NCBI GenBank assembly: GCA_964527715.1
Contig: CAZGOD010000004.1
Span: 11,355-75,354, forward strand
DNA: 64,000 nt
Reading direction: 5' to 3'
DNA from: an uncultured Thermoplasmatales archaeon
GTDB lineage: Archaea > Thermoplasmatota > E2 > DHVEG-1
This document shows, one piece after another, positions 58,276 through 63,584 of this stretch; the stretch's first letter is position 1; every line of letters begins with the position of its first letter. The position numbers and the translations under genes are program-made. Below the pieces are notes generated by a model. The model did no database searches, was not told where the DNA came from, and saw only the letters and a list, made by a program, of their open reading frames with translations.

Positions 58276-59415
58276 ATGTTATCCAAAAAAATAGTAATAA
58301 TTATCATATTTGTTCTATTTTTACAAGTTATAATTTCAACCTCTATAACCGGTAATACATTTAAAACAACACAATATGAAAATAATGAAATTGCTCTACT
58401 TTATAACAAGAATGCATGTGCAATAGATTGTAATATACGCTCTATAGCAGAGTATGAACCTGCTGGAGAGGTGATAATAACTTGGCCAAAATGGTGGTCA
58501 AGTACTGATGGATACAACCAAGAGGATTACTACATAAATTTGACAAAATCTTTAGAAGATGTAATTAATGTAAACATTTTAGTAAATAACAACTTGATAA
58601 AAAATAGGGTCATATCTAAACTAGAAGAAAATGGCATTCCTATTACCAATATAACATTTACAAAAATATTTACAGAGACTATATGGGTTAGAGATTATGG
58701 TCCTTTTTTTATTGAAAAAAATAACAATCTAGAGATTGTGGATTTTGGTTATTTTCCTGGAGCTGGAACTATAAAAGTATTTTTTTCTGATTTATTTCCA
58801 ACAAGATATGGAATAAAGAACAACATACGTATTACTTTCCTCACAAATATTCTTCTTACAATCCAAGGTGGAAATTACTTGACTGATGGAAATGGAACAG
58901 GATTTATCTGCATAGGCGGAATTAGACGTGATAATCCCTTTCTCCCAGAAAACAGGGCAATTGACATTTTGAAAAGATTTCTAGGGCTCAAAGATTTAAT
59001 TATTCTAGAAGGGCAAAAAGGAGATTTTACAGGTCATATAGATATGTTTGCGAAAATAATAAACGAGAGCACAATTATAGTAGGACAATATACTAATAGC
59101 AGTGATGTAAACTATCAAATTTTAGAAAATAACACTCAAAAATTAGCAGATTGTGCTTACAATGTTATTAGAATACCAATGTTACGTAAATCTTCAAATA
59201 ATAAAATTTTAACGTATACCAATTCATTGATAGTCAATAGTAATATCAAAAAAATCGTTCTTGTCCCACAATATAATATACCTGAGGACTCAGATGCTAT
59301 TTCTATATATCAAATGGCTATGCCTGATTATGAAATAAGAGGGGTCAATTCTGATACAATAATAGAATCTTATGGAGCTATACACTGTACAACTATAACA
59401 TTACCAGAAATATAG
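58276..59415 (+). CDS. PAD_porph-family guanidino-group hydrolase (agmatine deiminase / peptidylarginine deiminase-like) with an N-terminal signal/anchor
   Basis: IAEYEPAGEVIITWP and IWVRDYGPFF resemble the agmatine deiminase N-terminal motifs. The catalytic Cys lies in the C-terminal GAIHCTTITLP. The first ~25 aa are a hydrophobic signal peptide/TM. Confidence 0.75.
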   Translation: MLSKKIVIIIIFVLFLQVIISTSITGNTFKTTQYENNEIALLYNKNACAIDCNIRSIAEYEPAGEVIITWPKWWSSTDGYNQEDYYINLTKSLEDVINVNILVNNNLIKNRVISKLEENGIPITNITFTKIFTETIWVRDYGPFFIEKNNNLEIVDFGYFPGAGTIKVFFSDLFPTRYGIKNNIRITFLTNILLTIQGGNYLTDGNGTGFICIGGIRRDNPFLPENRAIDILKRFLGLKDLIILEGQKGDFTGHIDMFAKIINESTIIVGQYTNSSDVNYQILENNTQKLADCAYNVIRIPMLRKSSNNKILTYTNSLIVNSNIKKIVLVPQYNIPEDSDAISIYQMAMPDYEIRGVNSDTIIESYGAIHCTTITLPEI

Positions 59416-59515
59416 GAAAAATTGTTGTAAAATCTGTATATTTTATTAACTTAATATTAAATGTTTAAAAATATTTATATAGGGGGCTACACAATATTAA
59501 TTAAAGGAAGTTAAC

Positions 59516-60835
59516 ATGATTACGAAAAAGATTCTGGCCTTATCAGTAATATCCATAATTATTATAACCACTTTTTCAACAGTTTCATTTGCTTATTCTT
59601 CAGAGTATGGGACACTTGATTTGAAAAACTCAAACGATGATGAAAGTCATGTTATAGAAGGAGTACCATATTCACCACAAAAAAGAGGTATATATTGCGA
59701 ATATGCATCGGTTGAGATGGTACTACAATACTACGACATCAATACATCTGAAATAGAGATAATATACAATGTTGGAGGGGGATGCTCAATTGGATATAAA
59801 CCTAGCCTCATGAGTAAAATTCTTCGACCAATAATAAGACCACCATATAAATTTAGATTCTGGACTGATGAAGTTTGTGGGGGAACATTTGATTACAAAT
59901 TCATGGCAAACCTCTACGGCCTATCATTTGATTATATATATCCAAAATCAATAGTAAACCATGAAAAACAATGGAATGAATACTGGGAGAATCTAAAGAA
60001 TTATATTAGAAACGATATCCCTGTAATAACGGGTATAGATCCCTTAGTTTGGCCTCCATACATGGAAATTCAAAATATCACTTTTATAATACCTGCTCTA
60101 TTTGCTGGTTCACATGTTATTGTTGTAGTTGGTTATAACGAAAGCAATCAAACAGTATGCGTTAATGACCCCGCAGGCATTTATTATAGTTGCCCGGAAA
60201 AAGGATATTATCTATGGGTTAATTTATCTGATTTTAAAAGAGCAGTTCAAAGAATTAACTATGAACTTAACTATTACAAGTATACTATGTTAATTTTCAA
60301 AGAAATTTCTGATCCTTTACCTAAAGAAATAGCAGCAGATCTTGCTCATCAGAGAAACATTCAAAAAATGAAAGGGATAAAATCCGCATATGACGAAGAT
60401 TTCATGAATAAAAATTTTTACGAATTTGGAATAAATGCTCTAAAAGCACTGAGAGAAGACTTCAAATCAAAATTTTTAGTGAGAATTCCTGCTTTCAAAA
60501 TAATAGCTAAACTATATCCCTTGTCATATCCATTTGTTGATGTACTCAGAATGATGGAAAGAAACTTTGCATTTGAGTCGGTGACTAAGCAAGACGTATC
60601 AGAATATCTTATGGAAAATAAGGAGTTATGTGAGTATTACGAAAAAGATGCAATACTGCTTAAAACAGAGTCAAAATACTGGAAAAACCTCTCAATACTC
60701 ATGGAGAATTTGGAAGTAATCATATTAAATAAAACCCTTGTAAAAGCTATATTATTATCTAAACCTATTCTAAACGAAATAGTTAAAACATTGGATAGTA
60801 TCATAGCTATAGAAAATATGATTATTTATGAATAA
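59516..60835 (+). CDS. Secreted protein with an N-terminal C39-like (papain-fold, BtrH_N/C39_2-type) cysteine peptidase domain and a C-terminal helical domain
   Basis: Signal peptide. EGVPYSPQKRGIYCEYASVEMVLQYYD is the Gln/Cys motif of C39-like peptidases. GSHVIVVVGYNE carries the catalytic His and VNDPAG the Asp. Confidence 0.6.
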   Translation: MITKKILALSVISIIIITTFSTVSFAYSSEYGTLDLKNSNDDESHVIEGVPYSPQKRGIYCEYASVEMVLQYYDINTSEIEIIYNVGGGCSIGYKPSLMSKILRPIIRPPYKFRFWTDEVCGGTFDYKFMANLYGLSFDYIYPKSIVNHEKQWNEYWENLKNYIRNDIPVITGIDPLVWPPYMEIQNITFIIPALFAGSHVIVVVGYNESNQTVCVNDPAGIYYSCPEKGYYLWVNLSDFKRAVQRINYELNYYKYTMLIFKEISDPLPKEIAADLAHQRNIQKMKGIKSAYDEDFMNKNFYEFGINALKALREDFKSKFLVRIPAFKIIAKLYPLSYPFVDVLRMMERNFAFESVTKQDVSEYLMENKELCEYYEKDAILLKTESKYWKNLSILMENLEVIILNKTLVKAILLSKPILNEIVKTLDSIIAIENMIIYE

Positions 60836-60906
60836 CTTTTTTCCAAAATCTACAGGCATTTATTATTATATCAACATAAAATATAAATATTATATAAAAT
60901 AATAAA

Positions 60907-63247: not shown

Positions 63248-63290
63248 ATTTTTCTCTCCAAGTTTTATCTAAAAAATAGTAAAAAGAAAT

Positions 63291-63323
63291 ACATCATAAA
63301 ATCTTCGGTAATTTTAATGATGT
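63291..63323. promoter_or_regulatory. 12-bp near-perfect inverted repeat (ACATCATAAAAT-N8-ATTTTAATGATGT) in the 94-bp spacer between the small ORF and the rSAM-SPASM start
   Basis: Read directly from the sequence. The right arm has one extra A. On the minus strand a T-rich tract follows, then the rSAM ATG 45 nt away. Confidence 0.3.
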
Positions 63324-63341
63324 ATCCCTTCTAAGATTTCT

Positions 63342-63584
63342 CTATAGGCCAAAGATGAGTCTTAGAATTCTAAAGATTCTGAAGTCTTCTATGCTTATAC
63401 CACCATAACGAACTCCGAAAACACGGATAGTTGTAGCGGCAAATGCAAAAGCCATTACTGGTACAACAGCTAGAAGTATCTGATTTCTTCTTCGTCTCAA
63501 CGTACTTTTGATTTCATCCTTGGTTACGCCTAGGGTTTGGCCTAAATCATACAATTTGTCCACACGCGTCATTTTTATCACCAT
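63342..63584 (-). CDS. Small hypothetical protein with one TM segment, immediately upstream of and co-oriented with the rSAM-SPASM gene
   Basis: 80 aa. Soluble N-terminal ~35 aa (MTRVDKLYDLGQTLGVTKDEIKSTLRRRRNQ), then ILLAVVPVMAFAFAATTIRVF, then a C-terminal tail. No Cys. Confidence 0.35.
   Translation of the reverse strand: MVIKMTRVDKLYDLGQTLGVTKDEIKSTLRRRRNQILLAVVPVMAFAFAATTIRVFGVRYGGISIEDFRIFRILRLIFGL

Follow-up and report, generated by a model that had tools for sequence, protein, structure and literature searches.

Do five consecutive genes of an uncultured Thermoplasmatales archaeon make up a single peptide-modification system? The genes lie in a 64,000-nucleotide stretch of DNA (contig CAZGOD010000004.1 of GenBank assembly GCA_964527715.1, positions 11,355 to 75,354 of the forward strand), hereafter the window, and encode a guanidino-group hydrolase of the PAD_porph family (PAD), two paralogous papain-fold proteins (C39A and C39B), a radical S-adenosylmethionine (SAM) enzyme with a SPASM domain (rSAM) and a small membrane protein. 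The original prediction, made from the letters alone, took all five for one modification cassette. It is partly supported: the five open reading frames (ORFs) lie where it had placed them, but the small protein and rSAM also occur on their own, mostly beside a gene for an AbrB-ACT protein. The locus is best explained as two internally coupled units with a facultative mutual link, rather than as one fixed five-gene system, a reading to which we give about an even chance. The first unit comprises the small protein, an RNA hairpin and rSAM, and the second PAD, C39A and C39B, all three predicted to be exported.

The small protein and the radical SAM enzyme

The rSAM orthologue has a homologous small gene, encoding 69–101 aa, directly upstream in each of the ten lineages sampled, namely the window, L007/L111, L009/L121, L125, L106, L108, L110, L115/116, L117 and L119 (comparison loci carry L-numbers and W denotes the window locus; L106 is CP070798.1, a complete 1.92-Mb Thermoplasmatales archaeon genome). 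When the window protein was scanned with HMMER in full against 1.84 billion representatives, 15 further small-protein clusters came to light. Common to all members are an N-terminal helix, (I/L)xxxGxxLGxxKxEIK, a basic cluster with a charge of +2 to +5 over the 15 residues ahead of the hydrophobic segment, and the single hydrophobic segment itself. The C-terminal motif [H/R]-Y-[G/A]-[G/A]-x-[S/C]-x-x-[D/E]-F is found in 21 of the 21 members listed, and Ser and Cys exchange at one of its positions. As the original prediction had it, the window protein lacks Cys and has a single hydrophobic segment; it matches no Pfam or NCBIfam family at cut-off and continues past the motif in an Arg-rich amphipathic tail (tail peptide …FGVRYGGISIEDFRIFRILRLIFGL). 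The L007 homologue (3996-4301, minus strand) carries the motif twice, as HYGGVSIQDF and QYGSVCIEDF. Some peptides made by the ribosome and modified after translation (RiPPs) have precursors with tandem core repeats comparable to this doubling.

The enzyme next to it matches Radical_SAM (PF04055, E=7.8e-32, 111.2 bits) and SPASM (PF13186, 34.4 bits against a cut-off of 21.5), with CX3CX2C at residues 19–26 (C19, C23 and C26) and a full SPASM set, CX2CX5CX3C, read from the translation. Its predicted membership of a peptide-modifying class with complete SPASM motifs is supported by these motifs and by the families it resembles: 88 NCBIfam families match it, all far under their cut-offs, and the top ones are peptide maturases, led by rSAM_nif11_3 (201.6 bits vs 725) and including the GDL-motif maturase (196.7 bits, also below cut-off). 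The best matches in the PDB are SkfB, cytosylglucuronate decarboxylase, PqqE and SuiB-type enzymes; the tetraether synthase 7tol and anSME match weakly. Identification as the heme synthase AhbD or NirJ was rejected on scores far below cut-off (AhbD 157.1 vs 500) and on the conserved upstream small gene, and a role in defence was likewise rejected, given that the only PADLOC matches are generic ones of the viperin type, to its radical SAM core. Because CX3CX2C is already reached at residues 19–26, the enzyme has no N-terminal extension of the RiPP recognition element (RRE) type, and no RRE-like extension is visible anywhere in its 345 aa. At E<=1e-40 there are 1667 homologues, of which the best 120 are 54–74% identical and 319–354 aa long.

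The substrate, which the original prediction called not obvious, now has a best candidate in the small ORF itself. Its position upstream of the enzyme in 10/10 lineages, the conserved motif, doubled once, and the maturase-like character of rSAM make the small protein most likely the substrate, or at least a partner. A precursor-like gene thus adjoins a modifying enzyme and is conserved together with it, as expected of a RiPP system. Flanking intergenic DNA offers only ORFs of 20–33 aa as other substrates, the conservation of which was not tested.

The 12-bp inverted repeat described earlier between the two genes is real but larger than thought, with arms of 18 nt (63284-63301 and 63313-63330). 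The window hairpin has a folding energy of -20.2 kcal/mol (z=-4.7), and none of 200 shuffles was as stable. Significant hairpins of unrelated sequence occupy the same intergenic position in six of nine lineages (the window, L007, L108, L110, L117 and L119, with z from -2.3 to -6.7 in the latter five); none was found in L009, L106 and L116.

From position, conservation and family matches we infer that the small protein and rSAM form a precursor-plus-maturase pair across these sediment Thermoplasmatota. Cytoplasmic rSAM would act on the small protein before or during its insertion into the membrane, N-terminus in and C-terminus out, and modify [H/R]-Y-G-G-x-[S/C]-x-x-D-F, the C-terminal motif; the hairpin with its U-tract would allow the small gene a higher expression than the enzyme gene.

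The hydrophobic segment found in every family member would also suit a tether that recruits rSAM to the membrane, where the enzyme would modify a lipid or another membrane component, comparable to the archaeal lipid-modifying radical SAM enzymes. The housekeeping-like conservation of rSAM, its lack of an RRE-type N-terminal extension and the weak matches to tetraether synthase and anSME fit such a role. In a variant, rSAM would act like anSME and mature an exported enzyme; one possible target is the Cys-Cys of C39B, the convergent neighbour of rSAM in three lineages. However, the top family-level matches are peptide maturases and not lipid enzymes, the hairpin suggests the unequal expression expected of a precursor and its enzyme, and a strict C-terminal motif with a Ser/Cys exchange and a duplication would be unexpected in a tether. 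The variant is further opposed by the many lineages that have rSAM without C39B. We regard the tether, in either form, as improbable.

The proposed precursor-plus-maturase pair is independent of the other three genes of the locus, given that it commonly occurs without a peptidase or PAD gene nearby (6/10 lineages). Most often the small gene and then rSAM follow an AbrB-ACT gene, again with neither peptidase nor PAD nearby. The AbrB-ACT gene encodes a 139-aa AbrB/SpoVT-like and ACT-like protein, lies directly upstream of the pair in most lineages and has no copy in the window. The protein is strikingly alike across lineages (identity not computed) and may regulate the unit.

The exported enzymes

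PAD covers positions 3–321 of the 321 in PF04371 at 151.1 bits (cut-off 25). Motif alignment to the Porphyromonas peptidylarginine deiminase (PPAD) predicts Asp140, His254, Asp256, Asn316 and Cys371 as its catalytic residues; all but Asp256 (32/33) are kept in 33/33 members of the subfamily. A signal-like hydrophobic N-terminus is present in 30 of these 33, and the exceptions mostly look like N-terminally truncated gene calls. Together with the next-closest relatives, bacterial PADs bearing the type IX secretion system (T9SS) sorting domain PF18962, and with a single signal ahead of both domains in the fusion described below, this upholds the earlier assignment to the secreted type. The export signal argues against a part in cytoplasmic polyamine synthesis.

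By sequence, PAD is neither a canonical agmatine deiminase nor PPAD. It scores below the AguA equivalog cut-offs (77.7 vs 381.8 bits for TIGR03380 and 73.1 vs 483 for NF010070), and in fold its AF2 model (pLDDT 86.8) is about as near to agmatine deiminases as to PPAD (TM-scores 0.72–0.78 vs 0.70–0.73). A firm assignment to one or the other was rejected, as sequence and fold point to neither over the other. Most subfamily members have one Arg in the loop that matches Arg152/Arg154 of PPAD, where the window PAD has Lys, and the window protein stops with its catalytic domain at residue 379, lacking both the Ig-like and the T9SS sorting domain. At 0.292 (0.205 at third codon positions), the G+C content of the PAD gene is below that of its neighbours and the window average of 0.348, which is consistent with its patchy occurrence among relatives.

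C39A and C39B are 49.5% identical and form an active/altered papain-fold pair with the residue changes predicted for them. C39A has the full set of Gln (VPYSPQ), Cys61, His200 (SHVIVV) and Asp218 (NDP). C39B keeps the nucleophile Cys, but has Cys for His (SCC for SH), NEQ for NDP, and Gln-Lys (VPYAQK) in place of the usual Gly/Ser-Gln of the VPYxGQ motif. The Peptidase_C39_2 model (PF13529, cut-off 24 bits) gives 55.7 bits for C39A and 21.7 bits, below cut-off, for C39B. A signal-like hydrophobic N-terminus is found in 19 of 24 C39-like members, the exceptions again mostly resembling N-terminally truncated gene calls.

In a tree of 42 C39-like family members the A-type and B-type clades are sister groups. 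All five B-type members (W_B, L007_B, L121_B, P0009 and P0012) have SCC, have lost the Gly/Ser-Gln of VPYxGQ and retain the nucleophile Cys, which marks C39B as a constrained variant and not a product of random decay. Judged by these residues, C39B is probably a hydrolysis-incompetent His-to-Cys paralogue. It is also dispensable, being frameshifted in L121–L123 and absent in L124 and L125. The frameshift splits the B-type gene near residue 313 (L121 9449-10631; L123 2518-3790), and its presence in three independent assemblies of one lineage suggests decay there.

The label 'C39-like' holds for the Peptidase_C39_2 match of C39A, but not for the fold as a whole. C39A consists of an N-terminal domain with Cys, His and Asp and a C-terminal helical domain that matches no Pfam family, even at E<=1, and the whole fold of C39A/C39B matches the bipartite BtrH/CtaG/CcbD/AziU3 transacylases better than a plain C39 peptidase or the bacteriocin C39 peptidases. 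Bipartite fold and Cys/His/Asp set are those of a BtrH-like protein; CtaG, BtrH and AsbE are described as papain-like ligases or transacylases with the same bipartite architecture and a Cys/His/Asp triad (PMC12865890).

A functional link between PAD and the C39-like proteins is supported by fusions in other genomes. In L020, L019 and L032 a C39-like domain with intact Cys/His/Asp is followed in frame by a PAD domain, in single ORFs of 712–748 aa. The L020 fusion is complete (748 aa) and has one N-terminal signal ahead of both domains; the PAD part of the fusions begins past the equivalent of the window PAD's signal segment. In the tree L020 stands apart from the near-identical L019 and L032, which makes two diverged lineages. 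Separate PAD and C39-like genes are adjacent in the window, the only place where PAD lies next to C39A. A C39-like gene is present in one of the 26 close PAD loci and lacking in the other 25, and none of the 26 revealed a recurrent partner of the PAD subfamily.

We infer that PAD and the C39-like enzyme may cooperate on extracellular peptides or proteins that contain arginine. Here the papain-fold enzyme would cleave or transfer, and PAD would turn Arg into citrulline with release of ammonia, a logic similar to that of gingipain plus PPAD.

The absence of a recurrent PAD neighbour would also suit three ordinary exoenzymes (PAD, C39A and C39B) that scavenge detrital protein or nitrogen, a kind of enzyme plentiful in sediment Thermoplasmatota, with the rSAM pair as an unrelated housekeeping neighbour. 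PAD, whose fold is as near agmatine deiminases as PPAD, might then act on free agmatine or other arginine compounds, and the fusion and the adjacencies would reflect clustering of exoenzyme genes. Thermoprofundales genomes encode many extracellular peptidases, C25, C11 and C13 among them (PMC6461988; PMC9585477), and C39-like homologues adjoin genes for C25 (L023, L024, L111 and L125) or C13 (L010) peptidases. However, an in-frame fusion held in two diverged lineages (L020 vs L019/L032) outweighs chance clustering, and SCC kept in five B-type lineages is an unusual constraint for a simple digestive enzyme. Moreover, the C39-like whole-protein fold matches a transacylase and not a digestive papain, and the AguA model score of PAD is far under its cut-off. 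Such a complete lack of coupling therefore seems unlikely to us.

Links between the two units

The counts across genomes speak for separate units. The database that gave 1667 rSAM homologues holds 24 C39-like proteins, and an rSAM orthologue was found in 0/26 close PAD loci and 0/12 more distant C39-like loci. The two units are convergent and hence not co-transcribed. The predicted convergent overlap of C39B and rSAM is present and measures 8 bp. L124 has C39A without the small-rSAM unit. The original prediction had named as a point against itself that rSAM might prove to be a maturase unrelated to its neighbours; this is nearly so, since the pair mostly occurs without peptidase or PAD nearby. 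Co-occurrence in other genomes, which it had proposed to check, is seen for C39A and the pair, but the five-gene set is not conserved.

Several observations nevertheless weigh against keeping the two units so far apart. C39A lies at most two genes from the convergent small-rSAM unit in four of the five lineages of the A/B clade (W, L007/L111, L009/L121 and L125). The outer flanks differ in each, which suggests selection for the adjacency, and the gene in between is variously C39B, its frameshifted form or one for an ICMT-like methyltransferase. In L106, one strand carries in a row (4111-8547) a PPAD-like gene, the small gene, rSAM and Peptidase_C25; the PPAD homologue, of 469 aa, can be aligned to the P. 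gingivalis enzyme through both its catalytic and its Ig-like domain (E=8e-96 to 4yt9). C25 peptidase genes are near small-rSAM also in L111 and L125. The tail past the motif is Arg-rich and 12–34 residues long in C39-linked small proteins vs 7 residues in AbrB contexts, and the extended form is confined to the C39-linked proteins, a pattern confounded by shared ancestry. In addition, neither the sequence of PAD nor its fold, which fits agmatine deiminases and PPAD alike, assigns it a substrate. Adjacency, the L106 row, the nearby C25 genes and the Arg-rich tails together favour some cross-talk between the units.

At its fullest, such cross-talk would be an integrated pathway in which the small protein is the precursor, rSAM modifies the motif in the cytoplasm and the hydrophobic segment brings the tail to the outside of the cell. 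There C39A, partnered by a non-catalytic C39B, would cleave or transfer the tail, and PAD would citrullinate it, for example at the Arg that precedes the invariant Tyr. In bacteria, dedicated PADs make RiPPs that contain citrulline, such as citrulassin, which offers a precedent. The four C39A-linked lineages with their unlike outer flanks, the independent L106 row and the long Arg-rich tail in 4/4 C39-linked loci of known context speak for this pathway. Arg also precedes the invariant Tyr in both PAD-linked loci (W and L106) and in two of eight others, and His does so in most of the rest, but the trend (2/2 vs 2/8) is not significant, and its use to mark PAD linkage was rejected. As a general model, double-glycine cleavage of the small protein by the C39-like enzyme was rejected too, given that Gly-Gly is not conserved in the family (AA, NG, NS, GT, VG, IS and TG are also seen). 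Against an integrated pathway stand the six of ten lineages that have no peptidase or PAD gene near the pair, the persistence of C39A without rSAM in L124 and the convergent orientation. The slot that PAD fills beside C39A holds other genes elsewhere, for a giant surface protein (L111), YhfC (L121) or an ABC transporter (L125), and the four C39-linked lineages form one clade and may go back to a single evolutionary event. We consider the full pathway doubtful, and two units with a facultative link remain our preferred explanation.

All parts of the locus fall into known superfamilies, none into a curated family, and the literature searched contains no description of the rSAM/small-protein pair, of an archaeal PAD or of the combination of parts. 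Three features are unusual: the precursor-like protein contains a transmembrane-like segment, the BtrH-like papain folds carry export signals, and such a fold is fused to a PAD in other genomes. With the small-rSAM pair, abundant sediment archaea that are still uncultured appear to have a peptide-modification unit not described before, possibly in one copy per genome, whose motif Y-G-G-x-[S/C]-x-x-D-F provides a concrete target for biochemistry. The one-signal fusion of BtrH-like and PAD_porph domains predicts extracellular cooperation of the two activities. We know of no endogenous role established in archaea for the PAD_porph or the BtrH-like papain-fold family. L106 places a PPAD/gingipain-type pair in an archaeon, although PPAD is usually called unique to Porphyromonas (PMC6367333). 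A bolder and rather improbable extension is that a membrane micro-protein modified by rSAM is present lineage-wide and that its exposed tail is matured outside by PAD and papain-fold or gingipain-type enzymes in several lineages. If true, archaeal peptide maturation would be split across the membrane, and PAD_porph enzymes and BtrH-like papain folds would have an endogenous extracellular substrate. Any interaction of the units would be a rare archaeal case of peptide maturation that carries on after export.

The coordinates of all features are collected in Table 1. Gaps in the locus measure 100 bp (PAD–C39A), 71 bp (C39A–C39B) and 94 bp (rSAM–small ORF), public gene calls start C39B at ATG 60916 (433 aa), and the window holds no extra copies of the five genes. 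The flanks are housekeeping genes, with ribosomal protein L10e, an M50 protease, MptE-like and DUF373 proteins on one side and AlaX and MobB on the other; the AlaX-type (tRNA_SAD) gene begins beyond the locus (63790-64000, plus strand). L124 shares AlaX and MobB with the window (10343-11664: C39A, EamA, AlaX, then MobB on the other strand) and lacks C39B, rSAM and the small ORF, which implies that this block was gained or lost among relatives. Sediment metagenome contigs match the window, and relatives of its genes come only from metagenome-assembled genomes of Thermoplasmatota or 'Thermoplasmatales archaeon', SG8-52 and SM1-50 among them, which we take to be MBG-D/Thermoprofundales.

Table 1 Positions of the genes and elements of the window locus and of related features in comparison loci
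Feature	Locus	Positions	Strand	Length	Basis
PAD, predicted exported PAD_porph-family guanidino-group hydrolase	window	58276..59415	+	379 aa	PF04371, E=5.6e-44
N-terminal signal peptide or signal anchor of PAD, predicted (MLSKKIVIIIIFVLFLQVIISTSIT)	window	58276..58350	+		Kyte-Doolittle maximum 3.59 at residue 6
C39A, predicted exported bipartite papain-fold protein with full catalytic set	window	59516..60835	+	439 aa	
C39B, paralogue of C39A	window	60907..62217	+	436 aa from GTG 60907	
rSAM, radical SAM/SPASM enzyme	window	62210..63247	-	345 aa	PF04055 and PF13186
RNA hairpin, then U-rich tract, between small-gene stop and rSAM start	window	63282..63332	-		folding energy
Small membrane protein	window	63342..63584	-	80 aa; 76 aa if from second Met (63572)	
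Motif RYGGISIEDF in the small protein, candidate rSAM modification site	window	63381..63410	-		translation and family alignment
AbrB-ACT gene	L108	5254-5673			
AbrB-ACT gene	L110	5169-5588			
AbrB-ACT gene	L117	5168-5587			
AbrB-ACT gene	L119	5165-5584			
C39-like/PAD fusion ORF	L020	1055-3301			
C39-like/PAD fusion ORF	L019	1-2139			
C39-like/PAD fusion ORF	L032	280-2493			
C39-like cluster with B12-rSAM/NAS-like genes	L016	5234-15206			
C39-like cluster with B12-rSAM/NAS-like genes	L024	6270-13778			
B12-rSAM/NAS-like genes beside small-rSAM and C39A	L125	11704-14759			

Other neighbours of the C39-like genes vary. In the L007 lineage (L111 region 9844-13038 and its equivalents in L112–L114), the giant protein at PAD's position has about 1900–2100 aa and DUF2341 and Big_5 domains, and a C25 peptidase of 749 aa that includes a PKD domain is encoded two genes away from the small ORF. 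In L016 and L024, distant C39-like homologues belong to a conserved gene cluster that could serve biosynthesis or surface modification; it also encodes an OYE flavoenzyme, a GNAT-like protein, an NAS-like methyltransferase and two B12-binding radical SAM enzymes. In L125, B12-rSAM and NAS-like genes adjoin small-rSAM and C39A, a likeness to L016 and L024 by Pfam family alone.

Comparison with known systems

The small-rSAM pair is closest to the radical SAM/SPASM maturases with a small precursor gene (PqqA/PqqE, MftA/MftC, SkfA/SkfB and the nif11- and GDL-motif systems). It shares with them CX3CX2C and the full SPASM set, a small gene that lies immediately upstream and encodes a conserved C-terminal motif, and a hairpin ahead of the enzyme gene. 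In contrast to the PqqE/MftC/SkfB-type enzymes, the window rSAM misses every curated cut-off, even its best, and has no RRE or PqqD-like element in or beside it. Unlike in precursors of the PqqA/MftA/SkfA kind, a transmembrane-like segment separates the conserved N-terminal helix of the small protein from its motif, and whereas biosynthetic clusters are sporadic, the pair is housekeeping-like and conserved across the whole lineage.

The exported unit resembles PPAD and Arg-gingipain (C25) of Porphyromonas gingivalis, in which an exported PAD_porph enzyme is likewise paired with an exported enzyme of cysteine peptidase fold and gingipain R exposes C-terminal Arg for PPAD (PMC9559808). The five catalytic residues of PPAD (Asp130, His236, Asp238, Asn297 and Cys351; PMC4893104) all have conserved counterparts in the window PAD, and TNSLI(L/V)N around the Asn is common to both. 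However, identity is only ~26–27%, and at Arg152/Arg154, which bind the substrate's C-terminal carboxylate, YNRPRP of PPAD aligns to YFPGAG...K of the window protein. The Ig-like and T9SS sorting domains of PPAD are missing, and the partner is a clan-CA BtrH-like protein instead of a C25 peptidase. It is L106, and not the window, that holds a much closer PPAD homologue beside a C25 gene.

C39A and C39B share 9–10% sequence identity with the BtrH/CtaG/CcbD/AziU3 transacylases. Characterised BtrH-type members are cytoplasmic and take the acyl group from a carrier-protein thioester, whereas C39A and C39B have signal-like N-termini and no carrier protein is encoded among their neighbouring genes. 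The C39 bacteriocin peptidases of PCAT/ABC exporters are cytoplasmic too and cut at a double glycine. C39A and C39B differ from them in their predicted export and their extra helical domain, they are neither fused to nor beside an ABC exporter in the window, and the small-protein family has no conserved Gly-Gly for such an enzyme to cut.

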